From the NCBI GenBank assembly GCA_012521295.1, contig JAAYMS010000107.1, positions 35,641-99,640 on the forward strand: a stretch of 64,000 bases of DNA, read 5' to 3'. Numbering within the stretch: position 1 is the first letter of the stretch; every line of letters starts with the position of its first letter. Positions 2,171 through 54,109 of this stretch are shown piece by piece. The stretch is from Bacillota bacterium. Lineage in GTDB: Bacteria; Bacillota; Limnochordia; Darwinibacteriales; Darwinibacteriaceae. The notes below the pieces were generated by a model. That model did no database searches, had not been told where the DNA came from, and saw nothing but the letters and a program-made list of their open reading frames with translations. Made by a program: the position numbers and the translations under genes.

Positions 2171-3457
2171 ATGCCTAAGCCTCAACCAGAACTGCTGATC
2201 AGAGGAGCGCAGATCGTATCGCCTCTTGGCTCGAGCCCGATCTGCGGAGAAGAGATGCGGCACTTACGGGTTATCAACGAGGGGTGGATCGCCTGCTCCG
2301 ATGGTAAGATTCTAGGATTGGGTCCCATGGACGAGCTTGTCAATCACGTAACAGTGGACGGCTGTACAGAGATCATCGATGCGGCTGGTAAGGTGGTGCT
2401 GCCTGGCCTCGTCGACCCTCATACCCACCTCGTCTTTGGCGGAAGCCGCGAGGATGAGTTCTATCTTCGTGCTCAAGGTACCGATTACATGGAGATTATG
2501 ACTCGCGGGGGAGGTATTCTCAGCACGGTCCGGGCCACTCGCGCAGCGTCGCTCGAAGAGTTGGTGGAGACAGGGCTGCAGCGCCTGGACTGGATGCTCA
2601 GCCAAGGTGTAACTACCGTCGAATGCAAGAGCGGCTATGGGCTCGATCTGGAGACAGAGATCAAGCAGCTGCGCGCTGTGCAGATCTTGAATGAGCGGCA
2701 CCCGATCGAGTTGGTTGCTACCTTTATGGGTGCTCATGCGTTCCCACCCGAGTATGCTGGCAGGGAAGATGAGTTTGTTGAGGTGATCATCGAGGAAATG
2801 CTTCCTGCTGTAGCCGAACAGGGCCTGGCTGAGTACTGCGACGTCTTCTGTGAATCAGGCGTGTTTTCTGTCGAACAGACGCGACGGATTATGGAGAGAG
2901 CAAGGGAACTAGGCTTCAAGCTGCGCCTGCATGCTGACGAAATGACCTCTTTGGGCGGAGCGGAGCTGGCGGGAGAACTGCAGGCTTCCTCTGCAGACCA
3001 TCTTCTTCAGATCACTGAGGATGGGATGACAGCTTTGCGCGAAGGGCAAGTGATGCCCGTACTTCTGCCCGCGACCGCTTTTACACTCAAGAAGCCTTAT
3101 GCTCCTGCCCGGAGGATGTTGGAGAGAGGCTTACCCATTGCTCTAGCCACCGATTTTAACCCGGGTTCATCGCCAGTGCCGAGTATGCTGCTCACGATTT
3201 CGTTATCCTGTCTGTACATGGGCCTAACGCCCGAAGAGGCACTGAACGCAGCAACGCTTAACGCAGCGGTAAGTATAGACCGTGCCGAGCAATTAGGCAG
3301 CCTGGCTGTAGGTAAACAAGCCGACCTTGTTATCTTCGAAGTGGATCATTACAGCAAGATACCGTATTTTATTGGTGCAGATCTGGTTGAGACAGTGATC
3401 AAACGCGGCAGCATCGTGTACCACAAACCGCGGTTTAGAGGAGGATATGAATGCTGA
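2171..3457 (+). CDS. hutI: imidazolonepropionase
   Basis: Amidohydrolase motif VDPHTHLVFGGSRE. ATG at 2171 follows RBS GGAGGTG. The listed ORF start at 2084 is an upstream in-frame extension. Confidence 0.9.
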   Translation: MPKPQPELLIRGAQIVSPLGSSPICGEEMRHLRVINEGWIACSDGKILGLGPMDELVNHVTVDGCTEIIDAAGKVVLPGLVDPHTHLVFGGSREDEFYLRAQGTDYMEIMTRGGGILSTVRATRAASLEELVETGLQRLDWMLSQGVTTVECKSGYGLDLETEIKQLRAVQILNERHPIELVATFMGAHAFPPEYAGREDEFVEVIIEEMLPAVAEQGLAEYCDVFCESGVFSVEQTRRIMERARELGFKLRLHADEMTSLGGAELAGELQASSADHLLQITEDGMTALREGQVMPVLLPATAFTLKKPYAPARRMLERGLPIALATDFNPGSSPVPSMLLTISLSCLYMGLTPEEALNAATLNAAVSIDRAEQLGSLAVGKQADLVIFEVDHYSKIPYFIGADLVETVIKRGSIVYHKPRFRGGYEC

Positions 3458-4071
3458 TAGACTTAACTCTGCGGGAGTTCCTTGATGAGCTGGCCTCTGA
3501 TAGTGCTGTTCCGGGGGGAGGAAGCGCTTCAGCCCTAGCAGGTGCTGCAGCGGGAGCGTTGGTTCAGATGGTTGCCCGTATCACCACGCGTAAGTCACCT
3601 GACGCTCGTCTGATCGAAGTGCAGGAACAGGCTGCAGTCTTAACCGAGAGATTGAGCGAACTTATTCAGCGAGATTCTGATGCTTTTAGTGAGGTTGTGA
3701 CTGCGTTTAAACTGCCAAAAACCACCCCCGAGGAAAAGGAACAGCGTTCTCAGGCCGTGCAGGCAGCTTATCGGAATGCGGCCGCGGTCCCATTGGAGGT
3801 TATGCAGACAGCCGTTGACCTGCTGCAGCTGGCGCGCGACGTGGCAGAACACGGGAACCCAAATGCTCTGTCTGACGCCTGCGTAGCAGCGCAGCTCAGC
3901 TGGGCCGCAGTTCAGGGCGCGGCATATAATGTAGAAATCAATCTGCCGTACATCAATGATGAAGAGTTTGTCAGCATGGCGAAGGATAAGATGAAAGAAC
4001 TGTTGTACGCTGCCGATCAAGGCAAGGTTGGCGTGGAACAGTGCTTGTGCCGCAGAAAGCAGCCCCGTTGA
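3451..4071 (+). CDS. formiminotetrahydrofolate cyclodeaminase (FtcD C-domain-like, methenyl-THF forming)
   Basis: The N-terminus LREFLDELASDSAVPGGGSASALAGAAAGAL is typical of the cyclodeaminase family. RBS AGAGGAGG. It overlaps the hutI stop. Confidence 0.75.
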   Translation: MLIDLTLREFLDELASDSAVPGGGSASALAGAAAGALVQMVARITTRKSPDARLIEVQEQAAVLTERLSELIQRDSDAFSEVVTAFKLPKTTPEEKEQRSQAVQAAYRNAAAVPLEVMQTAVDLLQLARDVAEHGNPNALSDACVAAQLSWAAVQGAAYNVEINLPYINDEEFVSMAKDKMKELLYAADQGKVGVEQCLCRRKQPR

Positions 4072-4084
4072 CATCACAAGAAGG

Positions 4085-4340
4085 GCTGTGGTATCATTCA
4101 GGTAAATATGAATCGAACACGAGCTGTGACGGATTTAGTAGTTGACCATGGTTACAATTTCAGAGAGCAGGCTGGGTGGTGCGAAGCCTGCAGCACATGG
4201 TTTGGCGAATTACACTCCTGAGCTCCAGCAGGAAACTGCTGCGGGTTGCCATCCGATATCATGGCAAGAGGCGCTTCGGCGCGAATTAAGGTGGTACCAC
4301 GGGTTCTCTCGTCCTTAAACTGGCGAGAGAACCTTTTTTT
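4085..4340 (+). promoter_or_regulatory. T-box leader RNA upstream of tyrS with intrinsic terminator
   Basis: Conserved T-box sequence aattaaggtggtaccacgg at 4284-4302. Terminator hairpin ggttctctcgtc/gcgagagaacc at 4302-4333, followed by a T7 tract. A candidate UAC (Tyr) specifier sits at 4153-4155 in 'gguUACAau'. Confidence 0.7.
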
Positions 4341-6173: not shown

Positions 6174-7888
6174 CCCGATTTGTTAGACCTTACAGATTAT
6201 ATGTTGCACTCGTCATCGGATCTGTGTTCGCACAAGCGCTAGCAGAACTGATGCTTCCTAACCTGATGTCTCAGATAGTCGATCAAGGGATTGCCCTGGG
6301 AAATCTACCGCTAATCTGGCGGGTTGGCGGGTTGATGCTCGCTGTGGCGTTAGTGAGCACTGTCTTGGCGGTGGCCAGTAGTTATATCGAGTCTAGAGTT
6401 TCATCGGCGATTGGCCGGGATTTGCGCCGCGCAGTCTTTGCCAAAGCTGAGTCTTTCTCACTCCAAGAGTTCAACTCACTAGGCACATCTTCGCTGATCA
6501 CTCGCACCACTAATGATGTTCAGCAAATTCAAAGCGTCTTCTTGACCTTTACTCGCATGGTGGTTAGGGCGCCGCTTATGGCGATCGGTGGAGTTATTAT
6601 GGTTGTGGGCAAGAGCCCGCGCCTTGCGGGCATGCTTTTGGCGTTACTGCCGCTTCTTGCTGTCATTATCTTCGTGGTAGCGCGAAGTGTCATGCCGCAG
6701 TTTCGCAAGATTCAGCAGAAGATCGATCAGCTTAACCGTGTGGTCAGGGAACAGCTCATGGGTGTGCGGGTGATCCGTGCCTTTAATCGGGTTGGATTTG
6801 AACAAGAACGATTTGAGGCTGCCAACCGCGATCTCTCCCAGACCACTTTGAGAGTAACCCGAATCATGGCAGTCTTGATGCCACTTATGAGTCTAATCCT
6901 CAATCTGACTACTGTGGGAATCATGTGGTTCGGAAGCCGCCGCATCGACCTGGGGGAGATGGCCGTCGGTGATATGATGGCGTTCATTCAATATGCAATG
7001 CACATCATGATGTCGCTTGTCATGCTCTCAATGATTTTCGTGATGCTGCCCCGTGCAGCCGCTTCTGCAGATCGCATCAACGAAGTACTCGATATGGAAC
7101 CTCAGATTACTGATCCAGCTAACCCGGCTGTACCGGACAAGCGTACTGGTGTGGTGACCTTTACCGATGTAACGTTTGCTTATCCTGGGGCTGAGGCACC
7201 TGTATTACAGAATATCAGCTTTACTGCCCGGCCAGGTGAGGTCACAGCCATCATTGGTGGTACTGGATCCGGTAAGAGTACCCTGCTGAACTTGGTTCCT
7301 CGGTTTTATGATGTTAATGAAGGCAGCATAACTATTGATGGGGTTGATGTGCGTAATATGCCCCAGAATGTGCTGCGGCAGAAAATAGGGTATGTGCCTC
7401 AGAAGGCTCAGCTCTTCTCTGGCACAATCGAGTCTAACATCCGTATGGGTAAGCTTGACGCGGATCTTAGCGAGATCCGAACCGCAGCAGAAGCCGCTCA
7501 AGCGCTCGAGTTCATTCTCGAGAAGGATGAAGGCTTCGAATCACCAATCAGCCAGGGTGGCACGAACGTTTCTGGCGGCCAGAAGCAGCGTCTGTCTATT
7601 GCTCGCGCCCTAGTTCGTCAACCCGATATCTATCTCCTAGATGACTGTTTTTCCGCTCTAGACTATCGGACTGACGCAAAGCTCAGGGCAGCTTTTCGCC
7701 GCATAGCCAAAGATAAAACGGTGATCTTGGTAGCCCAGCGCGTCAGCACCATTCTCGACGCAGATCAGATATTGGTGCTGGATAGCGGGCGGATTGTCAG
7801 CCGCGGCACACATACTGAACTGCTGCGCAACTGCCCGGTTTATCAGGAGATCGTAGCGTCACAGCTTAGACAGGAGGAACTAGCATGA
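6161..7888 (+). CDS. ABC transporter permease/ATP-binding protein (exporter half-transporter)
   Basis: N-terminal 6-TM domain. Walker A GGTGSGKST, signature LSGGQKQRLSIARAL, Walker B IYLLDD. Confidence 0.85.
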   Translation: MWKLARFVRPYRLYVALVIGSVFAQALAELMLPNLMSQIVDQGIALGNLPLIWRVGGLMLAVALVSTVLAVASSYIESRVSSAIGRDLRRAVFAKAESFSLQEFNSLGTSSLITRTTNDVQQIQSVFLTFTRMVVRAPLMAIGGVIMVVGKSPRLAGMLLALLPLLAVIIFVVARSVMPQFRKIQQKIDQLNRVVREQLMGVRVIRAFNRVGFEQERFEAANRDLSQTTLRVTRIMAVLMPLMSLILNLTTVGIMWFGSRRIDLGEMAVGDMMAFIQYAMHIMMSLVMLSMIFVMLPRAAASADRINEVLDMEPQITDPANPAVPDKRTGVVTFTDVTFAYPGAEAPVLQNISFTARPGEVTAIIGGTGSGKSTLLNLVPRFYDVNEGSITIDGVDVRNMPQNVLRQKIGYVPQKAQLFSGTIESNIRMGKLDADLSEIRTAAEAAQALEFILEKDEGFESPISQGGTNVSGGQKQRLSIARALVRQPDIYLLDDCFSALDYRTDAKLRAAFRRIAKDKTVILVAQRVSTILDADQILVLDSGRIVSRGTHTELLRNCPVYQEIVASQLRQEELA

Positions 7889-9720
7889 GACATGGCGGGC
7901 CAAGGGGCGGCTTCGGGAAATTTGAGCGTGCCAAAGACTTTCGTGGGACAGCGCGGCGTTTATTGCAGTATCTCAGGCCGCATCGTCTGAGTCTAGCCTT
8001 TGTGATAGCGGCGGCTCTGCTGAGCACTGTGTTTAATATCTTCTCACCGCGCATTCTAGGACGTGCGACGACTCTGCTGTTTGAAGGGGCCATGTCCAAA
8101 ATGCAGAATGTGCCGGGAGCAGCGATTGACTTCGCAGCCATCGGCAGAACACTCGTTACTCTGGCTTTTCTATACGTCGCCAGCGCGTTGTTCACTTATG
8201 TACAGCAATACATCATGGCGGGGGTTGCCCAGCGCACAGTTTACGACCTGCGCCAAGCGATCAACCACAAACTAGCTAAACTGCCGCTGCGTCATTATGA
8301 CTCGAATCCCCACGGTGATCTGCTCAGCCGAGTGACGAATGATGTGGATATGGTTAGTCAAACACTGCAGCAGGGGCTCACACAGTTGGTGACCTCGGCG
8401 GTGACATTGATTGGTGTCATCATTATGATGCTGCGCATCAGTCCACTACTTACACTGATTACCATGCTCATGCTGCCGTTGAGTGCAGTCATCAGCGCAG
8501 TCGTAGTGTCGCGCTCGCAGGGTTACTTTGCTGGCCAACAGCGCTGGCTGGGAGAGTTGAATGGTCATGTGGAAGAAATGTACACAGGGCACACTGTGGT
8601 TAAGGCATACGGTTTAGAAGAAAAGGCGCTCGCTGAATTTGACCAAAAGAACGCGGAATTATACGAACACGGTTGGCGAGCCCAGTTCATCTCGGGAATC
8701 ATGATGCCTCTCATTGGTTTTGTGGGAAATCTAGGTTATGTGGCGATCAGTGTGATCGGAGGCATCTTTGCACTGCGGGGTCAGATCAAGGTGGGCGATA
8801 TTCAGGCCTTCATGCAGTATTCGCGGCAGTTCACAATGCCGATCACGCAAGCTGCAAACATTCTTAATATGATGCAGGCTTCAATCGCAGCCGCTGAAAG
8901 GGTCTTTGAGCTCCTTGATGCTGAAGAAGAGCCAGAAGATGCGGTGGACAGCGTCAAATTGAATGATCCAGAGGGGCGCGTGGAACTGAAAAACGTCAAC
9001 TTGGGATATAATCCTGGAAATCCCGTTCTGAGGAATGTAAATCTCACAGTCGAGCCAGGTCAAACGATAGCGATTGTGGGCCCAACTGGAGCGGGCAAGA
9101 CAACTCTAGTAAACCTGCTGATGCGGTTCTATGATGTGGACAGCGGGGAGATTACCATTGATGGAGTCAACATCGCCAAAATGAAGAGGGCCGACCTTCG
9201 GGCAGCGTTTGGCATGGTGCTCCAAGATGCTTGGCTGTTCCATGGTACGATTCGAGAAAACATCGCGTATGGCAAGCCTGGGGCAACCGAGGAGGAAATC
9301 GTGGCTGCAGCGAAGGCTGCCCACGCCGACCACTTCATCCGCACTCTGCCCGATGGATATGATACAATTCTGAGTGAGGATGCAGCTAACATTTCACAGG
9401 GGCAGCGCCAGCTGCTCACAATTGCGCGGGCAGTATTGGCCGATCCAACGATTTTGATTCTGGATGAGGCCACCAGTTCGGTAGATACGCGTACAGAACT
9501 GCTGATCCAGCAGGCTATGGCACGGCTGATGAAGGGGCGTACTAGTTTTGTGATCGCTCACCGTCTGTCTACCATTCAGGGCGCAGACTGCATTCTGGTG
9601 GTGCGAGACGGCGAGATCGTAGAACAGGGTACCCACGAAGAGCTCCTCGAAGCTGGTGGTTTCTATGCTGAGCTCTACTACAGTCAGTTTGCTGGCGAAA
9701 CCCGTTCTCGCGTAGGATGA
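7885..9720 (+). CDS. ABC transporter permease/ATP-binding protein (partner half-transporter)
   Basis: Walker A GPTGAGKTT, signature ISQGQRQLLTIARAV, Walker B LILDEATS. The start overlaps the previous stop. Likely a heterodimeric multidrug-type exporter. Confidence 0.85.
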   Translation: MRHGGPRGGFGKFERAKDFRGTARRLLQYLRPHRLSLAFVIAAALLSTVFNIFSPRILGRATTLLFEGAMSKMQNVPGAAIDFAAIGRTLVTLAFLYVASALFTYVQQYIMAGVAQRTVYDLRQAINHKLAKLPLRHYDSNPHGDLLSRVTNDVDMVSQTLQQGLTQLVTSAVTLIGVIIMMLRISPLLTLITMLMLPLSAVISAVVVSRSQGYFAGQQRWLGELNGHVEEMYTGHTVVKAYGLEEKALAEFDQKNAELYEHGWRAQFISGIMMPLIGFVGNLGYVAISVIGGIFALRGQIKVGDIQAFMQYSRQFTMPITQAANILNMMQASIAAAERVFELLDAEEEPEDAVDSVKLNDPEGRVELKNVNLGYNPGNPVLRNVNLTVEPGQTIAIVGPTGAGKTTLVNLLMRFYDVDSGEITIDGVNIAKMKRADLRAAFGMVLQDAWLFHGTIRENIAYGKPGATEEEIVAAAKAAHADHFIRTLPDGYDTILSEDAANISQGQRQLLTIARAVLADPTILILDEATSSVDTRTELLIQQAMARLMKGRTSFVIAHRLSTIQGADCILVVRDGEIVEQGTHEELLEAGGFYAELYYSQFAGETRSRVG

Positions 9721-10469
9721 GTTTTTCTGCCGCCGGAAATGAATTCCACGACTTTGGCGAAGACCAGTTCGTTATAGGGTGGCATTACGGGGATGTTGTG
9801 TGTGCCTTCATCCATCCAGAAACATTCTTTCTTGCGGGATGATATCTTGTTGAAAATAACCTCCGCGCTTTCTGGCCTAACTGTCTTATCGTCCCTTGTC
9901 TGGATGATAAGTGCCGGTGCGGTGATGTGGGGCAGTACGGCTTTGGTCTGAATCGTCAAGGTGTGCAGCTCAGCCACTGCGGCGATGGGAAACCGCGGAT
10001 AGTGCAGCAGGTATTTCTGGACTTCGGGCGGATGGTTTCCCTTCTCCGCTTCGCGGTAGGGCACAAAATACTTCACAAAACGCGCCAGTCGAATAAGACG
10101 GTTGGCAGGAACCAGGGCGGCCGCAATGGTAACAACTCCTTTTACTCGATTGCGGGCAGCCATCTGCAGCGCCAAGAGGCCCCCCATAGAGTGGCCGATT
10201 ACAATAACGCTGCTGCACTGGCGCTTAAGATAATTCAGCCCCTGTTGGGCTCCTTCAATCCAGTCACGGCATTTCACGCCCAATAGGTCCTCGGGCGTTG
10301 TGCCGTGACCAGGCAGAAGGGGTGCATAAACCGTATAACCGGCTTCATGCAGTGCCTCACCTAGAGGGCGCACCTCCGCCGGCGTACTGGTAAAACCGTG
10401 CAGTAAAAGACAGCCAGTTCTGTCACCCGGAAGTAAGAACGGTGCCTTCAGATTGGTCATTGCAATCAA
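9684..10469 (-). CDS. alpha/beta hydrolase (carboxylesterase-like)
   Basis: GHSMGG nucleophile elbow and HGFTSTP oxyanion region. It is convergent with the ABC gene and overlaps its 3' end by 37 nt. Confidence 0.75.
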   Translation of the reverse strand: MIAMTNLKAPFLLPGDRTGCLLLHGFTSTPAEVRPLGEALHEAGYTVYAPLLPGHGTTPEDLLGVKCRDWIEGAQQGLNYLKRQCSSVIVIGHSMGGLLALQMAARNRVKGVVTIAAALVPANRLIRLARFVKYFVPYREAEKGNHPPEVQKYLLHYPRFPIAAVAELHTLTIQTKAVLPHITAPALIIQTRDDKTVRPESAEVIFNKISSRKKECFWMDEGTHNIPVMPPYNELVFAKVVEFISGGRKTHPTRERVSPAN

Positions 10470-10488
10470 TCCTTCATCGCGTTAGTAA

Positions 10489-11637
<1,149 letters not shown>

Positions 11638-11642
11638 GAAGT

Positions 11643-11927
11643 ATGCATGTGGGATGCCTAGTGGTAGATTTTCATATTCCATCAGCGACCTCACTAAAGG
11701 AGAAACGCCGCATAGTGAAGAGCAACATCCAGAGAGCACAGCAGCGCTTCAATGCTTCTATCGTTGAGCTTTCTGACTATCAGGAGCTCTGGCGCCGTGC
11801 TGCAGTAGCTGCGGCCGTATGTGGTGATGATACCGTACAGATAGAAGGCCAGCTTCGCGCCCTGCTGAGTTTTTTCGAATCAGATCCCCGCTGGGAGGCG
11901 ATCCACGTCGATTTCAGTTGGCGATAA
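11643..11927 (+). CDS. DUF503 (YlxP-like) family protein
   Basis: The N-terminus MHVGCLVVDFHIPSATSLKEKRRIV is typical of DUF503. It is a small protein and may be co-transcribed with mnmA. Confidence 0.6.
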   Translation: MHVGCLVVDFHIPSATSLKEKRRIVKSNIQRAQQRFNASIVELSDYQELWRRAAVAAAVCGDDTVQIEGQLRALLSFFESDPRWEAIHVDFSWR

Positions 11928-11999
11928 AGGATTTTGCGCAAAAATTTAGAACTTATACGCTGGAGCAAGAGACCAAGACCACAGTAAGGAGGCTGACCG

Positions 12000-13586
12000 G
12001 TGAGAGAAGCATTTGCTGCCAGATTGGAAAGTATCCTCGGACGCGATTCGACGATGAAGAACTTGACGGCCCCGCGCCTTGTGGAACAGGCAGTGCTCAG
12101 AGGTGAAGGCCAGTTATCGGCTACAGGTGCGCTGTCTGTAGAAACGGGCAAGTATACAGGCCGTTCACCGAAGGATAAGTTCATTGTTAAAGATGAGCTG
12201 ACATCAGGGACAGTCGAATGGGGCAGCGTGAATGTACCCATGTCAGAAGAGGTGTTTTACCAGCTATTTGAACGGGTACTTGCTTACTTGGAAGAACGCG
12301 ACCGCCTTTTTGTGTTTCAGGGATTTGTCGGATCTGATCCAGCCTATAGGATGCCTGTGCAGGTCGTGAACGAATTTGCATGGCAGAACCTTTTCGCCCG
12401 GCAGTTATTTATACGTCCTTCGCAAGACGAACTCAAAGGCCATAGGCCAGAGTTTACTGTTATTGCTGTTCCAGGCCTGAAGGTAGATCCAAGAGAGGCT
12501 GGTACCAATTCTGAGGCATTTATTGTAGTATCCTTTACTGAGAAAGTAGTTCTGATTGGCGGGACTGGATATGCCGGCGAGATGAAAAAGTCGATCTTCT
12601 CGGTAATGAACTATCTTCTGCCGCAAAAGGGTGTACTGTCAATGCACTGTTCGGCCAATATGGGCCCGAATGGTGATACTGCCCTCTTCTTTGGCCTTTC
12701 GGGTACTGGGAAGACGACACTCTCCACAGATCCTGGACGCCTGTTGATAGGCGATGACGAGCACGGCTGGTCTGATAATGGGATCTTCAATCTGGAAGGG
12801 GGATGCTATGCGAAGTGCATCAACCTCTCCCAAGAAAATGAGCCGCAGATTTGGGATGCTATCCGCTTCGGAGCGGTTATGGAGAACGTCGTGATTGACC
12901 CCGAGACGCGGATACCTGATTACAATGATGGTTCCCGAACAGAGAACACCAGAGTTGCTTATCCGTTGGAGCATATTTCTGGCCGAGAGCTGAGCAGCAG
13001 AGGCGGCCATCCCAAAGCGATTGTCTTCCTGACTGCAGACGCTTTTGGAGTTCTTCCACCTGTCAGCATTCTTAACGATCAGCAGATTATGTATCATTTC
13101 TTGTCCGGCTATACCAGCAAACTTGCAGGGACTGAAAGAGGTATTCAGGAGCCTGAAGCCACGTTTTCTGCGTGCTTTGGTGAGCCATTCCTTCCGCTGC
13201 ATCCGGAAACGTATGCAGCGATGTTAAAGGATCTGGTTAACCGCCACGGGGCTACGGTTTATCTTGTCAATACGGGTTGGTCTGGGGGGCCGTATGGTGT
13301 TGGCAAACGCATTTCCTTGCCGTATACGCGAGCTATTATCAAGGCCGTCCTCGATGGCTCGTTAGCCGATGTAGATTGCTTCATTGATCCTGTGTTTGGC
13401 CTACGGGTACCCAAATCATGCCCAGGTGTGCCGCCTGAGATCCTCGATCCTCGTAATACCTGGGAAGATAAGAACGCATATGACCAAAAAGCGCGTGAAC
13501 TTGCGGCAGCTTTTCACAAGAACTTCGACCGTTACAGCAGCGTAAGTGACGAAGTCAAGGCGGGAGGGCCTCCAGTTCAGAGTTAA
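12000..13586 (+). CDS. pckA: phosphoenolpyruvate carboxykinase (ATP)
   Basis: Motifs [10 protein letters not shown] and [14 protein letters not shown] start 7 nt after AGGAGG. Confidence 0.9.
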
Positions 13587-13597
13587 GGAAGGGCTCC

Positions 13598-14050
13598 ATG
13601 TTTAAGATTATTGTAGACGCAGATGCGTGCCCCCGCAGTTGCCTTGGGATCTTAAAGAAGCACCGAGCTTCTTGGGGGTATCATCTTCTTACTATTTCGT
13701 CTGTCGACCATCAGATTGAAAGCTGCCACCACATTATGGTGGAAAAGGGTAAGGATAGTACCGATCTTGCTGTCATAAACAGTACAAACCGCGGTGATAT
13801 CGTAGTTACGCAGGATTGGGGGCTAGCGGCTCTTGTTCTTGGCAAGGGCGCCTACGCTATTTCACCTGCGGGACGTGTATTCAATGAAGCCACTATCGTT
13901 TTTCTACTGGAAGAACGGTCTTTGAAGGCGAAATTCCGGCGAGCAGGAGGGCGCACTCGTGGCCCTTCTGCTCGAACTGCAAAAGACGATCGACGTTTCG
14001 AAGCGAACTTCCTCGCCCTGTTGGCCGAGGCACGGAATAGTAGAGATTAG
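13598..14050 (+). CDS. YaiI/YqxD (DUF188) family protein
   Basis: The N-terminus KIIVDADACP is characteristic of UPF0178. Confidence 0.6.
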   Translation: MFKIIVDADACPRSCLGILKKHRASWGYHLLTISSVDHQIESCHHIMVEKGKDSTDLAVINSTNRGDIVVTQDWGLAALVLGKGAYAISPAGRVFNEATIVFLLEERSLKAKFRRAGGRTRGPSARTAKDDRRFEANFLALLAEARNSRD

Positions 14051-14064
14051 GAGATTTGCAGCTA

Positions 14065-15539
14065 TGAGACTAGACCCATGCATTTTAGTTATCTTTGGTG
14101 CCACAGGTGATCTAACTCACCGCAAGCTATATCCAGCGTTGTACAATCTCTGGCTAGACAAGCTTTTGCCAGAGAGGTTTGCCGTTGTTTCGATCGGAAG
14201 GCGCGAAAAGAATGACGACGAGGTCAGGCAAGATATCGTCCGGTCCATTCAGCAGTTCTCGCGGACGGCTAAGCCTTCTGGAGATAGACTCGATCAATTC
14301 TTGGCCATGTTCAGTTACTACCAGCTGGATTTTAACGATACGGCAGGATACGGGCCCCTGAAGGAGTACCTTGAGGAAAAGGATCAAATTCACGGTACCC
14401 TGGGCAACCGAGTGTATTTCTTAGCGGTTGCGCCTGAGTACTTCAGCCCAATCGCCAAAGAACTGCATGACCAAGGGATGGCTGAGCAGAGGGGCAGCTG
14501 GCAGCGGGTCGTGATTGAAAAGCCCTTCGGGCAGAACCTACCCACTGCTATTCAGCTGAACAATGATGTGCGCGCTACATTCGGAGAAGAGAATATCTAT
14601 CGAATCGATCACTATCTGGGTAAAGAAATGGCTCAGAACATAATGATCATCCGCTTTGCCAATACACTCTTCGAACCACTGTGGAATAACAGATATATAG
14701 ATCACATTCAGCTGAGCTTGACCGAGACCGTGGGCGTTGAGGGTAGAGGGCCGTACTATGAGCAGGCCGGTGCACTGCGCGATATGGTGCAGAACCATAT
14801 GCTGCAGCTTCTTTCGTTGATCGCAATGGAGCCGCCTGTCACGTTGGACACTGAGTCGATTCGCGATGAGAAGGTTAAGGTGCTCCGTTCGCTGAAGGTG
14901 AAGCGTGAAGACGTGGTGCGCGGGCAGTATGGCCGCAGTGAATCAGGTGAGATCAGGGCCTATCGCGAAGAAGACCGCGTTTCACCTGAGTCGCAAGTGG
15001 AGACGTTCGTTGCTCTCAAGGCTACTATCGATAACTTCAGGTGGGCTGGTGTTCCGTTCTATCTGCGTACTGGTAAGCGCCTGCCGCGCAAGTATTCGGA
15101 GATCGTGATCCAGTTTAAGAAGCTCCCCGGAGTTCTCTATTTCAAAGATAACGACTTAGATCCGAATATCTTAGTAATTCGGGTTCACCCCGATGAAGGC
15201 GTGTATCTGCAGTTTAATGCTAAGCAGCTCGGGACCAGCAGCCTGATTGTCCCTGTATCAATGGATTTCTGCCATAACTGTGCCGATGGCCTGAACTCGC
15301 CCGAAGCCTATGAACGCCTGCTCTATGATGTGATGCGGGGAGATTCTACCCTATTTACTCGCTGGGACGAGGTCGAGCATTCCTGGCGCTTTGTGGACCA
15401 GATCGCCGAATGGTGGCAGGAGCAGCCCGAGATCCCGATCTATCCAAGCGGTTCGTGGGGGCCGAAGGAGAGTGATGAACTCCCCGAAAAGGATGGCCGA
15501 CGCTGGCTGTATTTTGTGAGAAATGAGGGAACGAGATGA
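14065..15539 (+). CDS. zwf: glucose-6-phosphate 1-dehydrogenase
   Basis: Motifs GATGDLTHRKL and RIDHYLGKE. ATG at 14065 follows AGGAG. The upstream in-frame extension to 13959 is rejected. Confidence 0.9.
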
Positions 15540-47317: not shown

Positions 47318-48661
47318 CTAGTTAATGGGATAAGCGTGAAAAGAGGCGACCCGCCACCCAGTTGGTTCTGCAGCCAGTTCTAAATCGATGGCAACATCCG
47401 TTCGGGGCGAGTGTCTTACAAGGATCGTTGCCCGAAACTCTCTTGGATTAGTGACAATCACCTGCCAAGGTTCTTCTTTGTTGAGTCCCTGAAACAAACT
47501 GACTGCTATCGCGCGCTGCGCTGGATCAGGCAAACCCAGCAATTCTTCAATGACCTCACGGTCCACGGCAGCTGCCTCTTGAAGTTCTCTGACGTAACCC
47601 TTTATAGAATCAATCAAGCCCTGCGGTGCAGCAGGTTGATGCGGATGCATTGTAAATCTCTGCAGTTCCCACCCATCTGCTATCTTAATCCAAACCATGA
47701 AAGCATCGTAGAGTGGTTGCCCGCCGCTGATCATTATCGTGGTTAGGGTTCCGTCTCTCTCGGTAATCTCCAGGTTCGTAATCTGGCTCTCTAGCGGAAG
47801 CACTGCAGAGGGGATGTTCTTTAAGTAATCAACGAGTCCTTGTTTCCTTAGTTCTGCGCCTATATGGGCGGTAAGGAAATCCACGTTCCGGGCAGAGACT
47901 GCTTCATCCCACCGTACTATCAAGTTGCTTAGCTCCCCAGCCGGCCCATCGCTTCTGACTGCAAGCGAGATGGGTGGTGCAGGGGGTTCTGCGCTTGGAA
48001 TCGGTTCGGCAGCTGGGGGCTCTGGTATTGATTCGGCCTGTGCTGGTTCTACCTGCATTGGTTCTATTTGTGCCAGCTCTGTTTGGGCTGGTTCCGGGGA
48101 TGGGGCTTCTTCATCGGGGAACGGTGGCGGTTCTGCAGGCGCAATTGGTTCCTTAACGATTTGAACCTTGTTGATATCCAAATCGGACTGCGTCGATAAG
48201 ACCAAGACTGGGTACGAATCTTGTGGCTGATAAAGGTGCCAATCATCAGGATGCTGGATGAAGAATTGCGAGACTTCCACCGGTATGGAGAACTCAGGGA
48301 ACCAAAGGCTGTCGCGGCCTAGAGTAAGGGGATCATTTTGCAAGGCGAGAAAACCTTCGTAGGCAAGATGAAGTTCCCTTGCTGAACCGTACTCTCTTAA
48401 ACGGACTGTGACTACAGTTCCCAAAAAACCTCGGTCTATACTGTAATCCTCAATACCCTCGGTCCACAAGACTGTCACCTGAGCACCAGGGAACAGCCTC
48501 AGTGAAAACTGAGGGCCGGCCGGGTTTATCGTGACCTGCCCATCGACTCGTAGAAACCCGCTGTCTGGCATAATAAAAGCTTGGATTTGGGCATGGGCTA
48601 GGGTCGAGGCGCAGAGGAATGCAGCGCAGGCAACTAAAACCCCAAGCAACCGGTTATGCAT
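47318..48661 (-). CDS. secreted hypothetical protein with Pro/Glu/Ala-rich repeat linker
   Basis: Signal peptide MHNRLLGVLVACAAFLCASTLAHA. A central run of about 70 aa of EPAQ/EPxx repeats. No family recognised. Confidence 0.5.
   Translation of the reverse strand: MHNRLLGVLVACAAFLCASTLAHAQIQAFIMPDSGFLRVDGQVTINPAGPQFSLRLFPGAQVTVLWTEGIEDYSIDRGFLGTVVTVRLREYGSARELHLAYEGFLALQNDPLTLGRDSLWFPEFSIPVEVSQFFIQHPDDWHLYQPQDSYPVLVLSTQSDLDINKVQIVKEPIAPAEPPPFPDEEAPSPEPAQTELAQIEPMQVEPAQAESIPEPPAAEPIPSAEPPAPPISLAVRSDGPAGELSNLIVRWDEAVSARNVDFLTAHIGAELRKQGLVDYLKNIPSAVLPLESQITNLEITERDGTLTTIMISGGQPLYDAFMVWIKIADGWELQRFTMHPHQPAAPQGLIDSIKGYVRELQEAAAVDREVIEELLGLPDPAQRAIAVSLFQGLNKEEPWQVIVTNPREFRATILVRHSPRTDVAIDLELAAEPTGWRVASFHAYPIN
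47930..48170. repeat. low-complexity coding repeat (encodes the PEPAQ-type linker of the minus-strand gene)
   Basis: The DNA shows imperfect tandem ggttc/ggctc-rich units. The plus-strand ORFs at 47925-48164 and 47974-48156 are artefacts of this repeat. Confidence 0.6.
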
Positions 48662-49204: not shown

Positions 49205-49259
49205 TTGTATTTCCTTGATCGAATTGGTATAATAAACCGTGTGCACAAAAATGTGTACA
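49205..49259 (+). promoter_or_regulatory. sigma-A-type promoter (TTGTAT-17-TGgTATAAT) with two tandem palindromic boxes TGTGCACA / TGTGTACA at the predicted transcription start
   Basis: -35 at 49205-49210, extended -10 at 49225-49233. Boxes at 49240-49247 and 49252-49259. The ATG at 49280 follows AAGGGGG. Confidence 0.55.
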
Positions 49260-49279
49260 ACAGCTCAAGGGGGTACATC

Positions 49280-51925
49280 ATGCATCCATATATTGAATAT
49301 GTGAATCCACATCTAGGTAAGCGTTTGGTGCAGATTGGCCTTGATAAGCGGTTCGTCCGTGGAAACGGCAGTCGGCTGTTCGATGCCGATGGGGTAGAGT
49401 ATCTAGACTGTATCGCTGCCTATGGCGCTCTCCCCTTTGGATACAATCCGCCCCTGATTTGGGAAGCAGTCAATGCTGTACAGGCTAGTTCGGAGCCTAG
49501 TTTTATCCAACCATCCATGTTGGAAGCTGCTGGAAGGCTGGCGGAGGCTTTAATTAACGCGGCACCTGCGGGGATGGCTTACGTGACATTCGTAAACAGC
49601 GGTGCTGAGGCAGTCGAGGCGGCTGTGAAACTCTGCCGCGCCAAAACGGGTAAACTAGGAATTCTGTCTACAAAGAACAGTTTTCACGGCAAGACCTTGG
49701 GTGCATTATCCGCTACTGGGAACCCATCCTATCAGGATGCCTTTGGTGCACCACTGCCCGGGTTCGCTCACATTCCATATGGTGATGTGCAGGCTCTCGA
49801 AAGCTATCTTGCGGAGCATGCCCACGAGACGGCAGCGTTCATCATTGAGCCTATCCAAGGTGAAGGCGGCATTGTCGAGCCTCCCGAAGGCTATCTTAGG
49901 GCTGTACAAGAGATCTGCAGCTCCTATGGAGTATTGACTATTTTCGACGAGATTCAGACCGGCCTCGGCCGCACGGGTTATTTGTTTGCCTGTGAACGCG
50001 AAGGCGTTACTCCCGATGTGATGGTGCTTGCAAAAGCCTTGGGCGGTGGTTTGGTGCCTGTGGGAGCGGTCTTGTGTAAAGCGGAAGTATACACCGAGGA
50101 TTTCGGTCATAAACATTCGTCAACTTTCGCCGGAAACACCTTAGCCTGCCGCATCGGGCTGAGAGTGATGGAGATTCTTACAGAGAATGATCAGGCACTT
50201 GTGAAAGAAATCCGGAGAAAAGGCGAGCGTCTCAAGGGGCTTCTCCTTGAAGTCGCTGAGCGGTACCCACAGATCATCAGAGGAATTCGTGGCCAGGGCC
50301 TCATGCTGGGTGTAGACTTCGGACATGACAAGGATGTCTATCCCGACAGTCTGCTTGGCATCTTGGCGGAGCAAGAGTTCCTCACGCCTCTTATTGCTTC
50401 ATACCTGCTTAATACAGAGAAAGTGAGGGTGGCGCCTACTCTGAATGGGGCTAGTGTCATCAGGATCGAACCACCTTTGATCATCACCGATGACGAGATT
50501 GAACGGATAGCTAGTGCCGTAGAGAACGTTGCTAAGATGCTTGCGCAGCGCAATACTGCCAATTTCTTGGGGCATCTCATCGGCTATACTCCCGAGGAGC
50601 CTGCGGAGCCTGTAAGCGAGCCGGCTTCGCCAGCAGCCGAACCGATAGCGCAGGAAGACGATGGCCGTTTTGCCTTCTTGGTTCATCCAGTAGATTTGGC
50701 GAATTACAGTGATTTCGATGCTAGCCTGGCTGTGTTTTCCGAGGAACAGCTGGCAGACTTAAGCTCCCGCTGGAATGATCTAGTGGAACCCTTCGTGGTC
50801 GGTACCACTCGCATCGAAAGCAATACAGGAGAAACAGCCTATGGAGATTTTATCTGCCTGCCGCGAACGGCTGATGAGTTCTTAGCGATGGATCGGGATC
50901 AGGCGATTGCCGAAATTAGACAGGCGATCGAGCTCGCCAAAGAACGTGGCGCTCGCCTGGTTGGGCTGGGAGCCTATACTTCAGTGGTCACGATGGGAGG
51001 ACGCTCTCTCGTGCCCTATGTCGATGTCGCCTTGACGACAGGCAACAGCTATACAGTGGTATCAGGGATCGAAGCAGTAACTACGGCCGCTCAGAGCCTT
51101 GATGTGACACTGGAAACAAGTACTGCCGCCGTGTTGGGCGCAAGCGGTGCTATTGGCAAGGCGCTCTCGACTCTCCTTGCCGAAAGTGTACAGGAGCTGA
51201 TTCTCATCGGCAATCCGCGGAATGCGGGTAAGAGCGAGTTCCGTATGCGCAAGGTCGTCGTGCAAATCTTACAGCATCTCCGTCAATTGGCCGACAAGGG
51301 GCACGAGTTCGCAGCGGGTACCATCGGTGACTACGTCCGGAAACGCCAGGATCTACCGTCGGCAGATGCTGACTTGAGTGAATGGCTGGATTACGTCGAA
51401 ACTCTTCTTATGGAGGATGCTCCGTTCGTAATTACGACAGACGCAGCGGCACATCTACCTAAAGCAGATCTGATTGTAGCAGCAACCAGCAGTCCCGAAG
51501 CGCTGATAACTCCCGCTATGCTGAAGTGGGGGGCCGTGATCTGCGATCTATCTCGCCCGGCCAATGTCAGCCGGGAAGTCCTGCACGAAAGGCCTGATGT
51601 GCTGGTCATAGATGGCGGTGTTGTCGAAGTACCCAATCGCCCAGATCTGGGATGGAACTTCGGCTTTGAGCAGGGCCAAGCATACGCCTGCATGTCAGAG
51701 ACGATGATGCTGGCCTTGGAGAAACGCTATGAAAACGCAAGTCTGGGTGCAGACTTGAACATCGAGCACATCCAATACCTGCGAGGACTGGCTGATAAGC
51801 ACGGCTTTGCTCTGGCTGGCCTGCGCAGCTTCGATAGACCCTTAACATCCGAAGAACTTGAACGGGTGCGGAGACTACGGGCCAAAGGTGCAGATACTGA
51901 AGACAAAATAGCACAAAATGCATAA
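49280..51925 (+). CDS. bifunctional fusion: class-III PLP aminotransferase (N-terminal) + acyl-ACP-reductase (AAR)-like NAD(P)-binding reductase domain (C-terminal)
   Basis: Residues 1 to about 440 are ArgD/GabT-like (GNSFHGKT, EPIQGEGG, FDEIQTGLGRTG, PLP Lys in AKALGGG). A Pro/Glu/Ala linker follows. Residues from about 470 to the end resemble cyanobacterial AAR (as recalled from memory) block by block: GLGAYTSVV, TTGNSYT, GASGAIGKA Rossmann motif, DLIVAATSSP, IDGGVVEV, QAYACMSETMMLALE. No Cys is found at the position of the AAR catalytic Cys. Confidence 0.6.
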   Translation: MHPYIEYVNPHLGKRLVQIGLDKRFVRGNGSRLFDADGVEYLDCIAAYGALPFGYNPPLIWEAVNAVQASSEPSFIQPSMLEAAGRLAEALINAAPAGMAYVTFVNSGAEAVEAAVKLCRAKTGKLGILSTKNSFHGKTLGALSATGNPSYQDAFGAPLPGFAHIPYGDVQALESYLAEHAHETAAFIIEPIQGEGGIVEPPEGYLRAVQEICSSYGVLTIFDEIQTGLGRTGYLFACEREGVTPDVMVLAKALGGGLVPVGAVLCKAEVYTEDFGHKHSSTFAGNTLACRIGLRVMEILTENDQALVKEIRRKGERLKGLLLEVAERYPQIIRGIRGQGLMLGVDFGHDKDVYPDSLLGILAEQEFLTPLIASYLLNTEKVRVAPTLNGASVIRIEPPLIITDDEIERIASAVENVAKMLAQRNTANFLGHLIGYTPEEPAEPVSEPASPAAEPIAQEDDGRFAFLVHPVDLANYSDFDASLAVFSEEQLADLSSRWNDLVEPFVVGTTRIESNTGETAYGDFICLPRTADEFLAMDRDQAIAEIRQAIELAKERGARLVGLGAYTSVVTMGGRSLVPYVDVALTTGNSYTVVSGIEAVTTAAQSLDVTLETSTAAVLGASGAIGKALSTLLAESVQELILIGNPRNAGKSEFRMRKVVVQILQHLRQLADKGHEFAAGTIGDYVRKRQDLPSADADLSEWLDYVETLLMEDAPFVITTDAAAHLPKADLIVAATSSPEALITPAMLKWGAVICDLSRPANVSREVLHERPDVLVIDGGVVEVPNRPDLGWNFGFEQGQAYACMSETMMLALEKRYENASLGADLNIEHIQYLRGLADKHGFALAGLRSFDRPLTSEELERVRRLRAKGADTEDKIAQNA

Positions 51926-51981
51926 ACAATAACTCCTCCACATACGATTAGATGAGCATTTGTGTGGGGGGATCGGCCTTG

Positions 51982-52725
51982 ATGGGACAATGGCGCGTTG
52001 CAGTGGCAGGCGGCACCGGGAGAACGGGAAGAGAAATCGTTCGATACCTAAACGCCGAAGAAGGCATTGAGGTGGTTGGGGTAGTGGCTCGATCCCTTGC
52101 AGGCCAGTCCATGTCAGTGGTATTACCTGGACTAAAGCGCCATATTCCCATATATGGAGATCTTGCGGAGCTCTTAAGGATTGATCCCCCCCACGTCTTG
52201 GTCGATTTCACCACACCGCAGGCGGCTAAGCGTCACTTCTTCATGTGTATAGAACGGGGGATTAATCCCATTATTGGAACCACAGGGTTTACAGATGCGG
52301 ATATAGCAGAGTTTGCTGAGGCCTGCGCGGCATTCAAGATTGGGGCCGCGGTTATCCCTAATTTCTCCATTGGCGCACTGGCTCTCAGGCTTGCCGCACA
52401 AGTCGTAGCTGGTATGCTGGACGATGTGGCCGTGTTGGAAACTTACCCTCATTCGAAAAGAGATCTGCCTTCAGGTACTTCCCAGCGTTTGGCCGCGCTA
52501 CTGGCCACAGGCGGGCCTGACAACCCCAAAGCGGTACCGATTCACAGCGTCAGGCTGGACGGTGTGCTGCCCCAGCAGGAAGTGCGGTTTGGTGGGCAGG
52601 GTGAGATGGTTGCCATTTCTCACCTGGTCAGTGACCGGGCCTGTTTCGGCAGGGGAGTGGCGATGGCCGTTAAGAAGATAGCAAAATTCCCCACCCTGAT
52701 TCAGGACCTAGATTTCTTTATATAA
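51982..52725 (+). CDS. DapB-like reductase (4-hydroxy-tetrahydrodipicolinate reductase family, divergent)
   Basis: N-terminal VAVAGGTGRTGREI, GTTGF and PSGTS blocks. The catalytic region reads ETYPHSKRDLPSGT, whereas the canonical DapB motif as I recall it is EAHHRHKVDAPSGT. ATG at 51982 follows GGGGGG. Confidence 0.6.
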   Translation: MGQWRVAVAGGTGRTGREIVRYLNAEEGIEVVGVVARSLAGQSMSVVLPGLKRHIPIYGDLAELLRIDPPHVLVDFTTPQAAKRHFFMCIERGINPIIGTTGFTDADIAEFAEACAAFKIGAAVIPNFSIGALALRLAAQVVAGMLDDVAVLETYPHSKRDLPSGTSQRLAALLATGGPDNPKAVPIHSVRLDGVLPQQEVRFGGQGEMVAISHLVSDRACFGRGVAMAVKKIAKFPTLIQDLDFFI

Positions 52726-52843
52726 CCGGGAAAGTCCCCGGTTTTTTGCTTTACAGGGAAAGGCAGGAACTTAGTGTAACTGCGGAGAAGTAGCACTCTC
52801 GACTCGGTTTCCAGTATCGGGTTATATAGAGGAGGACTAGAAG

Positions 52844-54109
52844 TTGAAGCTTGCATTGCATGGTGGCGAACCCGTTCGGACACGCCCCTGGGTTTCGAAA
52901 TTTATCGGCGGTGAAGAGCTGGGCCAGGAGGAGCGCGAGAGGGTACTGCGCGTCCTGGAAAAGAAGCGCATTTTCAGGTATCTCCCTGAAGGGTTGGACG
53001 AATCAGAAACGGCTCAACTGGAGAAGGAATATGCTCGCTTCGTGGGTACTCGCTATGCTTTGGCAGTCAATTCTGGCACATCGGCTCTAATCTGTGCGCT
53101 GGTTGCAGCTGGAATTGGCCCAGGAGATGAGGTTCTGATACCCGCTTATACGTGGGTGGCTACGGCAGGGGCCGTCGTGTCGATCGGAGCTGTACCAGTA
53201 CTCTGCGAAATAGACGAATCCTTGACCATTGATCCAGAAGATATGGAAAAGAGAATCACGCCTTATACCAAGGCTGTTATTGTGGTGCACATGCGCGGCA
53301 TGTCTTGTGACATGGACCGCATCATGGCAGTGGCACGGGCACACGATTTAAGGGTAATTGAGGATGTTGCACAGGCCAATGGAGGAAGCTATAAGGGTAG
53401 ACGCCTCGGAAGTTTCGGTGACGTAGGCTGCTTTAGCCTGCAGCAATCGAAGGTGATTACTACTGGCGAAGGCGGTATGGTTGTCACTGATTCGGAGGAG
53501 ATATGGCAGCGGGCGGTGATATATCACGACGGTGCCATGTATCAATTCCGCTTCACCGAACGTAAGGTACCGGCCTTTGCTGGTCAGAATTACCGCCTAA
53601 CCGAGCTGCAGGCAGCCCTGTCTTTGGGGCAGATTGAAAAAATGCCTGAGCTGATTAAGGCAACGCGGGCTGTAAAAAGAAGAGCTCTTGAGGTACTTGC
53701 AGGCCAGACTGGCATTTACTTTGCTCCGGCGTTCGGCAGTGAGCGGGATCTTGGTATCAGCTTGGTTTTCTACACTGAGACAGCTGAGCAGGCCGAATTC
53801 TTGGAAAAGGCTATTTCGGCTGAGGGCATCCCAGCACAGCGTATTTACAATCCGGAGCTGAACGATCAACATGTCTATGTCAACTGGGAGTTCTTAATGA
53901 ACAAACGCGATCCTTGGGGTGGAAGTTTCCCGTGGGATCAGCCTTTCTACAAGGGAAGTGTTGATTACAACGCCGACTCTTGTCCAAGGACTCTCGATAT
54001 CTTGAGCAGGGCAGTCCAGATTCGCCTCAATCATTTGATCACTGACGAAGACCTAGCTGACCTGAAGCAAGCAGTTGCCAAGACGGTTTCGGCAATGCCC
54101 ACATCTTAA
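52844..54109 (+). CDS. DegT/DnrJ/EryC1/StrS family PLP aminotransferase
   Basis: Motifs NSGTSAL, PAYTWVA and SFSLQQSKVITTGEGG (PLP Lys). TTG start 7 nt after AGAGGAGG. Confidence 0.8.
   Translation: MKLALHGGEPVRTRPWVSKFIGGEELGQEERERVLRVLEKKRIFRYLPEGLDESETAQLEKEYARFVGTRYALAVNSGTSALICALVAAGIGPGDEVLIPAYTWVATAGAVVSIGAVPVLCEIDESLTIDPEDMEKRITPYTKAVIVVHMRGMSCDMDRIMAVARAHDLRVIEDVAQANGGSYKGRRLGSFGDVGCFSLQQSKVITTGEGGMVVTDSEEIWQRAVIYHDGAMYQFRFTERKVPAFAGQNYRLTELQAALSLGQIEKMPELIKATRAVKRRALEVLAGQTGIYFAPAFGSERDLGISLVFYTETAEQAEFLEKAISAEGIPAQRIYNPELNDQHVYVNWEFLMNKRDPWGGSFPWDQPFYKGSVDYNADSCPRTLDILSRAVQIRLNHLITDEDLADLKQAVAKTVSAMPTS

Follow-up and report, generated by a model that had tools for sequence, protein, structure and literature searches.

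A transaminase fused to an AAR-like thioester reductase in a Limnochordia bacterium: a further member of a published enzyme type, preceded by an operator-like element

Here we describe a gene for a two-domain protein in a 64,000-nucleotide (nt) stretch of DNA, hereafter the window, from an uncultured Bacillota bacterium of the class Limnochordia (assembly GCA_012521295.1, contig JAAYMS010000107.1). On the plus strand, a single unbroken open reading frame (ORF) runs from an ATG at 49280 to a stop codon at 51923-51925 (gene 49280..51925) and encodes 881 amino acids (aa), in which a class-III (omega) aminotransferase or transaminase (TA) domain is followed by a thioester reductase (TR) domain resembling acyl-ACP reductase (AAR; ACP, acyl carrier protein). 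The longest form of the ORF, 906 aa from a TTG at 49205, begins upstream of the -10 box described below. The 881-aa product is the likely protein, since the ribosome-binding site (RBS) AAGGGGGT, read from the sequence at 49267..49274 (+), 5 nt before the ATG, precedes position 49280, and this start codon sits downstream of the extended -10 box. The TA domain, recognized by PF00202 and Foldseek, comprises residues 1-436 (49280..50587), a Pro/Glu/Ala-rich linker residues 437-461 (50588..50662), and the TR domain, recognized by phmmer, NCBIfam, Foldseek and column conservation, residues 462-881 (50663..51922). An AlphaFold model of the whole protein had a mean predicted local distance difference test score (pLDDT) of 86.4 and a predicted template-modelling score (pTM) of 0.80; in the linker, whose sequence varies among orthologs, the pLDDT was about 52 and no secondary structure was formed. 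More than 100 full-length clusters share the TA-TR architecture (55-87% identity, 860-890 aa), the nearest relatives belonging to Limnochordia metagenome-assembled genomes, and the identical 881-aa protein (P0001) was recovered independently. An earlier note on this DNA had proposed a single fused polypeptide of 881 aa, and the uninterrupted frame together with the Pfam and phmmer domain matches bears this out, as does the recurrence of the two-domain arrangement in other genomes. The same note had regarded the architecture as undescribed. However, PigE, KecF, PtTamH and four TAm-AAR fusions are already in the literature, and the window protein is a further member of this known enzyme type.

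The Pfam family Aminotran_3 (PF00202) matched residues 26-415 with E = 5e-94 and 315.7 bits against a cutoff of 30.5. The nearest solved sequences were the TA domain of PigE (306 bits) and the putrescine aminotransferase YgjG (287 bits), and Foldseek retrieved the same two proteins (PigE 4ppm, E = 1.8e-37, TMt 0.82; YgjG 4uox, E = 6e-34), both of fold type I of the pyridoxal 5'-phosphate (PLP) enzymes. Lys252 (50033-50035), in the motif LAKALGGG, was aligned to the corresponding motifs of YgjG (LAKALGGG) and PigE (LSKSLSGG) and was invariant in 29 of 29 orthologs; from established knowledge of the class-III family, we take it to be the lysine that forms the Schiff base with PLP. This evidence agrees with the earlier assignment of the N-terminal half to the class-III PLP enzymes.

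The C-terminal ~420 residues matched the N-terminal region of PigE (4ppm sequence, chain residues 2-357) with a phmmer E-value of 7.6e-36 and cyanobacterial AAR (6jzq, chain residues 25-336) with one of 3.9e-18, a homology that extends through all three subdomains of AAR, and they were also matched by the NCBIfam profiles PigE and AcACP_reductase. Neither equivalog cutoff was reached, the scores being 92.3 bits for AAR (TIGR04058, cutoff 449.7; there is no ADO context) and 573.6 bits for PigE (NF053554, cutoff 850). In the latter comparison, the TA half fell at profile positions 382-730 and the TR half at 1-193, so that the order of the domains is swapped. Modelled by itself, the TR domain (pLDDT 91.7) had AAR 6jzy as its best fold match in the PDB (E = 3.7e-22, template-modelling score 0.75), confirming for the separate domain the likeness to AAR put forward earlier. 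The carmabin terminal amidation domain (TAD) came second (E about 1e-18), and beyond these two there were generic Rossmann dehydrogenases only, with the next unrelated folds at E > 1e-5. All blocks of the alignment quoted in the earlier note recurred in the phmmer alignments (window/AAR: GLGAYTSVV/ALGGFTSII, TTGNSYT/TTGNTHT, GASGAIG/GATGDIG, KADLIVAATS/EADFIVWVAS and YACMSETMMLALE/FACFAEAMLLEFE). The dinucleotide loop GASGAIG (residues 620-626; 51137-51157) was aligned to AAR 162-GATGDIG-168, and Gly620, Gly623 and Gly626 were each present in at least 251 of 253 TR domains, an alignment composed of the orthologs and the 150 best representatives of a library of 1.8 billion proteins. This alignment gave no decision between NADH and NADPH preference.

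The acyl-accepting catalytic residue of AAR is C294 (PMC7089970), and Cys296 has been proposed for PigE (PMC8341465). By phmmer chain coordinates, C294 is the cysteine of MFAC(294)FAEAM. Cys804 of the window protein (51689-51691), in AYAC(804)MSETM, aligns with it, and PigE Cys296, in NGC(296)MAET, stands in the same column. This column holds cysteine in 251 of the 253 TR domains and a gap in the other two, and the nearby Glu807 occurs in 252 of 253. The earlier note had aligned AAR VVEHCFD with window VVEVPNRPD and concluded that the catalytic cysteine was replaced; that pairing is right, but the residue in it is C271, not C294, and Cys804 falls inside the fourth of the note's own alignment blocks. 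The loss of the cysteine is ruled out by the residue counts in the PDB alignments taken with the AAR paper (PMC7089970), and the altered mechanism that the note had drawn from it came from the choice of the wrong cysteine. The predicted catalytic cysteine is kept, and since the Cys804 column, Glu807 and the glycines of GASGAIG are conserved, the data give no hint that the TR domain would follow a different mechanism. This correction averts a false claim of a 'cysteine-less AAR'. Both domains are intact, and the catalytic motifs of AAR and of the class-III transaminases are all present and conserved.

Two features mark the TR domain off from AAR and PigE. Cys755 (51542-51544), in the motif ICDLSRP, was found in 243 of 253 TR domains, whereas AAR and PigE have isoleucine at that position. 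The second Rossmann strand is followed by a helical insertion (about 50-70 residues, inside the stretch 646-715; 51215-51424) in TA-TR and larger fusions, but not in stand-alone TRs. The dinucleotide loop and the catalytic cysteine are 178 residues apart in the window protein, compared with 126 in AAR and 174 in PtTamH (published G713 to C887), and the similarity to TamH implies that it and the window protein share the insertion.

A published relative of the same organization is PtTamH of Pseudoalteromonas tunicata, from the tambjamine YP1 pathway. In 2022, this enzyme was shown to convert C12-ACP loaded by TamA to the C12 aldehyde and then to the C12 amine with NADH and L-glutamate, while acyl-CoA was not accepted (PMC9594044). 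Like the window protein, PtTamH consists of a class-III TA, a linker of about 25-50 aa and an AAR-like TR, with the catalytic cysteine (C887) in the same motif and a GxxGxxG loop. It differs in its length (941 aa) and longer TA N-terminus, and in lying in a 19-gene pyrrole-alkaloid cluster beside the ANL-ACP partner TamA, whereas the window gene has neither such a partner nor such a cluster. TamH is 28-32% identical to Bacillota fusions (PMC10829540), and the window protein was compared with it by its published description. Of four TAm-AAR fusions expressed in 2024, three come from Bacillota, namely Thermaerobacter marianensis, T. subterraneus and Thermincola ferriacetica; the fusions from Thermaerobacter and Thermincola were proven to transaminate both aliphatic and aromatic aldehydes, with glutamate preferred (PMC10829540). 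The catalytic cysteines of the fusions were mapped as C909, C815 and C824, alcohol dehydrogenase activity was not found, and BLAST gave 'little insight into their background' (PMC10829540). By their description, the Bacillota proteins (Tmar_2123, ThesuDRAFT_00745 and Tfer_2018) resemble the window protein in TA-TR order, phylum and size; two of them have the catalytic cysteine at 815 and 824 vs. 804 here, and, like the window gene, theirs lie outside recognizable biosynthetic clusters.

KecF of the koreenceine cluster of Pseudomonas was described in 2019, its COG5322 domain being predicted to reduce an ACP-bound chain to an aldehyde that is then transaminated (PMC6498172). KecF/PP_2782 has the TA-TR order of the window protein (PMC6498172; PMC10829540) but is part of a type II polyketide synthase cluster with ACPs and ketosynthases, of a kind not present in the window. 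PigE of Serratia (4ppm), which acts in the 2-methyl-3-n-amylpyrrole (MAP) branch of prodigiosin synthesis, received a new interpretation in 2021, as a thioester reductase joined to a transaminase in TR-TA order (PMC8341465). Both of its domains are homologous to those of the window protein, and it is the best sequence match for each half; it differs in the reversed domain order, the location in the pig cluster and the lack of the helical insertion. AAR itself (6jzq/6jzy; PMC7089970) shares with the window TR the fold, the dinucleotide loop and Cys294 in an ACxxE motif. In contrast, it is a stand-alone protein of 341 aa that passes its aldehyde to ADO for the formation of alkanes, while the window TR has the extra insertion, Cys755 and a fused TA. 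An analogous logic is seen in GluTR-GSAM (HemA-HemL), where the aldehyde made by a cysteine-dependent reductase is channelled to a class-III PLP enzyme. These, however, are separate proteins with a tRNA-ester substrate, GSAM is an aminomutase, and the relationship is only remote (GluTR 1gpj was a weak fold match of the TR-only model, E = 8.8e-4).

The TR domain is widespread, with 2,136 cluster representatives at E <= 1e-10. Among the best 150 of them, 66 were TA-TR proteins, 66 TR alone (some of them fragments), 10 TA-TR-ANL, seven had TA-TR preceded by an adenylating domain, either alone or together with a carrier domain, and one was TR-ANL; the TA was N-terminal to the TR in 83 of the 150. 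The closest non-orthologous relatives of the TR (43-50% identity) occur in TA-TR-ANL, ANL-ACP-TA-TR and ANL-AONS-ANL-ACP-TA-TR proteins. In the TA-TR-ANL proteins of ~1,400 aa, which lack an ACP, the ANL part scores above the cutoff of the NCBIfam benzoate-CoA ligase family; other fusions combine FAAL-like ANL with ACP domains, one of them having an alpha-oxoamine-synthase-like domain as well. Such mega-fusions, with the makeup of acid-to-amine enzymes, include P0123, P0126 and P0134 (~1400 aa), P0124 (1599 aa), P0135 and P0140 (2624 aa). The fusions to ligases and ACPs constitute Rosetta-stone evidence for a route from acid to thioester, aldehyde and amine. They show, moreover, that a fatty acid is not the only possible source of the acyl group. 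A genome-contig search with the ortholog alignment settled on generic motifs of class III, and its matches were for the most part ordinary aminotransferases; the useful loci (comparison loci are given L numbers) were L007-L011 and L016. The last of these (6271-14878) is from a cultured Bacillus relative, Metabacillus rhizosphaerae (NZ_CP147403), whose TA-TR protein of 879 aa is 37% identical to that of the window and is encoded in a cluster with a flavin amine oxidase, a DUF3419 protein, a Glu/Leu/Phe/Val-type dehydrogenase, an MFS transporter and a TetR regulator. M. rhizosphaerae is a tractable organism for TA-TR genetics.

Upstream of the fusion gene, an extended -10 element, TGGTATAAT, is predicted at 49225..49233 (+), as read from the sequence rather than placed from a mapped transcription start. 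A generic promoter scan did not call this box, the -35 region being weak; a TATAAT or TAAAAT box is present at the same relative place in ortholog loci. Between the -10 element and the RBS lies an operator-like element, TGTGCACA-AAAA-TGTGTACA (49240..49259, +), consisting of two near-palindromic 8-mers in a 12-bp register, with the consensus TGTGYACA-N4-TGTGYACA. The element is unique in the window even when up to three mismatches are allowed. The exact motif was found in front of TA-TR orthologs, at 20-41 nt from the ATG, in L005/L007 (7960-7979), L008 (7962-7981), L010 (4755-4774), L011 (7963-7982), L087 (5961-5980), L088 (1482-1501) and L089 (5961-5980), and nowhere else in loci L001-L089; in L003 it is degenerate. 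The L008 ortholog, 53% identical, carries the motif in a completely different neighbourhood, and the element travels with the TA-TR gene even where the neighbours all differ. A reading of the element as an RNA hairpin was dropped for want of statistical support: its minimum free energy of -11.6 kcal/mol (z = -1.38) was equalled by 20 of 200 shuffles, and the statistic is itself confounded because each box is palindromic. When compared with the sites of Rex, CRP/FNR, NrdR, LacI-type and GntR-type regulators, the motif bears no more than a loose resemblance to a GntR-like GT-N-AC pattern, to which we attach no assignment.

A metagenome scan with the motif yielded mostly chance or low-complexity matches, and seven of 119 loci represented the same system. 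In L121, L122, L125, L154, L184 and L202, the motif stands immediately before a three-gene operon that encodes an XRE-type helix-turn-helix (HTH) protein of ~175 aa, a protein of ~300 aa and a stand-alone AAR-like TR of 363-385 aa (L121 3795-5555; L122 ~12800-13400; L125 6963-9511; L154 2602-5225; L184 1074-2702, minus strand; L202 5526-8213). The stand-alone TRs of these operons keep the cysteine of AYACM[AS]ETM as well as Cys755, and the insertion is absent. On Clostridia-like contigs (L121, L154), the operon is located between dusB and greA-lysS. In L001 (8475-12634), L209 (4453-8570) and L210 (2956-7103), the HTH gene and the gene for the ~300-aa protein lie directly upstream of a TA-TR fusion, and boxes related to the motif precede the HTH gene. 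The motif also occurs in L196, ~15 nt upstream of the start of a class-III transaminase gene (2898-4330) that stands alone and whose product shares 44% identity with the window TA; this suggests a regulon where TA and TR are separate genes. The ~300-aa protein belongs to a large family of at least 8,000 members at E <= 1e-5 and has no Pfam, NCBIfam or PDB sequence match, so that nothing from these sources backs its NCBI name, 'quinate 5-dehydrogenase'. In L210, a gene for an S-adenosylmethionine decarboxylase (PF02675) is found at 7295-7669, 190 nt after the operon; the hint at polyamine metabolism that it offers is possible but unsupported. The HTH gene and the ~300-aa gene are not within the window. 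The simplest reading of these arrangements is that the boxes would be the operator of the XRE-type HTH protein, that a single regulated pathway would comprise TR, TA and the ~300-aa protein, and that in the lineage of the window TA and TR would have become fused with the operator retained.

The other genes around the fusion are of a housekeeping kind, and no secondary-metabolite cluster was found around it; nor did tblastn with the domains of fused relatives (E <= 1e-3) detect any ANL, ACP or AONS homolog in the window. Upstream lie genes for a glutamate dehydrogenase, a secreted protein of unknown function (minus strand) and a GNAT acetyltransferase (minus strand), and downstream dapB, a DegT-family aminotransferase, a gamma-glutamyltranspeptidase, dapF, a glycerophosphodiesterase and three M42 aminopeptidases. 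The secreted protein (47318-48661, minus strand), encoded divergently from the fusion, has 447 aa with a signal peptide and a Pro-rich linker, and gave no Pfam or NCBIfam match. Genes of similar size (414-443 aa) are found at the same place in L003, L005, L087, L088 and L089, and its adjacency is uninformative because the whole block is syntenic. The dapB gene (51952..52725, +) encodes 4-hydroxy-tetrahydrodipicolinate reductase (TIGR00036, 151.8 vs. a cutoff of 122). Its listed start, ATG 51952, has no RBS; AGGAGGA precedes ATG 51982, from which the usual DapB N-terminus RVAVAGGTGRTG is read, and the latter codon is probably the true start, leaving a gap of 56 nt to the fusion gene. The two genes may be co-transcribed, as no terminator-like site was found between them and a terminator-like hairpin with a T-run follows dapB (52724..52743, +).

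The fusion is followed by dapB in L087 and L005 as well, but not in L003, L088, L089, L008, L006 or L001; elsewhere the downstream gene is for a DegT aminotransferase, an AraC regulator, prolyl-tRNA synthetase, glycogen synthase or an unrelated protein. Because the downstream genes are not conserved among orthologs, the neighbourhood does not name the substrate. A role in the synthesis of diaminopimelate and lysine, considered in view of dapB and dapF nearby, was dropped, as this gene order is not a conserved one and the dapB product scores above the cutoff of its own equivalog family. The protein of the DegT/DnrJ/EryC1 aminotransferase family (421 aa, 52844-54109) lies between dapB and dapF, as it does in L087, and one adjoins dapF in L003. 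It scores far below the cutoffs for sugar aminotransferases (best 198 vs. 420), and that it is linked to diaminopimelate synthesis is a guess.

With a probability that we put at about 0.7, the window protein is a bifunctional enzyme of the published TA-TR type that works and is regulated as follows. An acyl thioester, either acyl-ACP or acyl-CoA, would enter the C-terminal domain, and its acyl group would be moved to Cys804 to give an acyl-enzyme intermediate. This would be reduced by NAD(P)H bound at the GASGAIG loop to a free aldehyde, which would pass to the N-terminal PLP domain (Lys252). Transamination there, with L-glutamate as the most likely donor, would yield a primary amine. The activity itself, like its cofactor, donor and direction, is predicted here by homology to AAR and PtTamH. 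The same chemistry, from thioester through aldehyde to primary amine, had been proposed in the earlier note, and it gains support from PtTamH, an enzyme with identical domain order in which it has been demonstrated (PMC9594044). A repressor probably binds the predicted operator TGTGYACA-N4-TGTGYACA, which would overlap the transcription start, and the best candidate for it would be the XRE-type HTH protein that heads the homologous operons in other Bacillota. Since the window offers neither a ligase nor a carrier protein nor a biosynthetic cluster, the acyl group would probably come from a thioester pool of primary metabolism or from a partner encoded elsewhere. Malonyl-, succinyl- and fatty acyl- substrates were also considered, but the data do not discriminate among them and any such choice is speculation.

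Several observations weigh against this proposal. The window holds no ACP or ANL gene, unlike the TamH system, and the varying downstream neighbourhoods of the orthologs give no substrate. The reverse, catabolic direction is thermodynamically allowed. In addition, what the C-terminal domain of Bacillota TA-TR fusions catalyses was not established and no alcohol dehydrogenase activity emerged from the tests (PMC10829540), purified PigE was inactive on a thioester mimic (PMC8341465), and PtTamH, which did not accept acyl-CoA, depended on an ACP partner of its own (PMC9594044).

It is conceivable that the enzyme instead runs in reverse: the TA would remove the amino group of a primary amine or diamine, leaving an aldehyde, and the TR would serve as an aldehyde dehydrogenase of the CoA-acylating kind (aldehyde + CoA + NAD(P)+ to acyl-CoA), which would keep the energy as a thioester useful to an anaerobic fermenter. 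The relatives do live in anaerobic digesters, and the closest characterized TA relative besides PigE, the putrescine aminotransferase YgjG, is catabolic. The gene stands alone amid genes for amino-acid and peptide catabolism (glutamate dehydrogenase, gamma-glutamyltranspeptidase, M42 aminopeptidases), an amine product has no obvious sink downstream, and the glutamate dehydrogenase near the fusion in the window has an adjacent counterpart in Metabacillus, next to the flavin amine oxidase. Nevertheless, the characterized members of the TR family (AAR, PigE, TamH) all work reductively, relatives fused to adenylating ligases and ACPs only make sense from acid to amine, and CoA-dependent aldehyde oxidation by AAR-like enzymes was not reported in the literature reviewed. 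We consider the reverse direction doubtful.

Another activity of the AAR superfamily in the C-terminal domain, whether amide formation as in TAD or a plain reductase of aldehydes, alcohols or imines as suggested in the earlier note, is quite unlikely. Carmabin TAD, whose chemistry is unresolved, does belong to the superfamily and was the second-best fold match, and the subfamily is set apart by the helical insertion and by a near-invariant Cys755 not found in AAR and PigE. However, identity to TAD structures is 15-17% as against 22-24% to AAR, TADs, with their macrodomain-like N-terminal domain, stand at the C-terminus of modules of nonribosomal peptide synthetases (NRPSs), none of which is present, and the domain is closer to AAR than to TAD. 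The catalytic cysteine, dinucleotide loop and ACxxE motif are those of AAR, PigE and TamH; aldehyde formation fits the covalent link to an aldehyde-using transaminase; and exhaustive alcohol dehydrogenase tests of four TA-AAR fusions were negative (PMC10829540). Finally, that a frameshift, sequencing or assembly error joined two genes, a possibility raised in the earlier note for which nothing was found beyond a low-complexity linker where such errors might hide, is hardly credible and was excluded, given the independent recovery of P0001, the reading frame kept through the linker in more than 100 clusters (860-890 aa) from many samples and sources, and the expression of homologous fusions as single polypeptides.

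The appeal of a single chain that makes a primary amine from an activated carboxylic acid has already been stated for TamH as well as for the fusions of Thermaerobacter and Thermincola, and the window sequence therefore adds little to biocatalysis, namely a mesophilic or moderately thermophilic member from the Limnochordia. The new lead is the operator-like element with its HTH and ~300-aa partners. Tentatively, the Bacillota TA-TR protein might be the output enzyme of a conserved but unrecognized pathway of primary metabolism under the control of an XRE repressor, composed of the HTH protein, the ~300-aa enzyme and the AAR-like reductase with or without the transaminase. The ~300-aa protein might then be a new partner that activates or delivers the acyl group, and the pathway might yield a small physiological amine or, in reverse, lead from an amine to acyl-CoA with conservation of energy; we regard this wider reading as possible rather than probable. 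If it is true, the product would not be the tail of a secondary metabolite. The finding raises the question of what role TA-TR enzymes play in Bacillota lacking clusters for pyrrole alkaloids or polyketides, and the operator, the HTH regulator and the ~300-aa partner offer concrete routes to the physiological substrate through the ligand of the regulator, the partner enzyme and the regulon.

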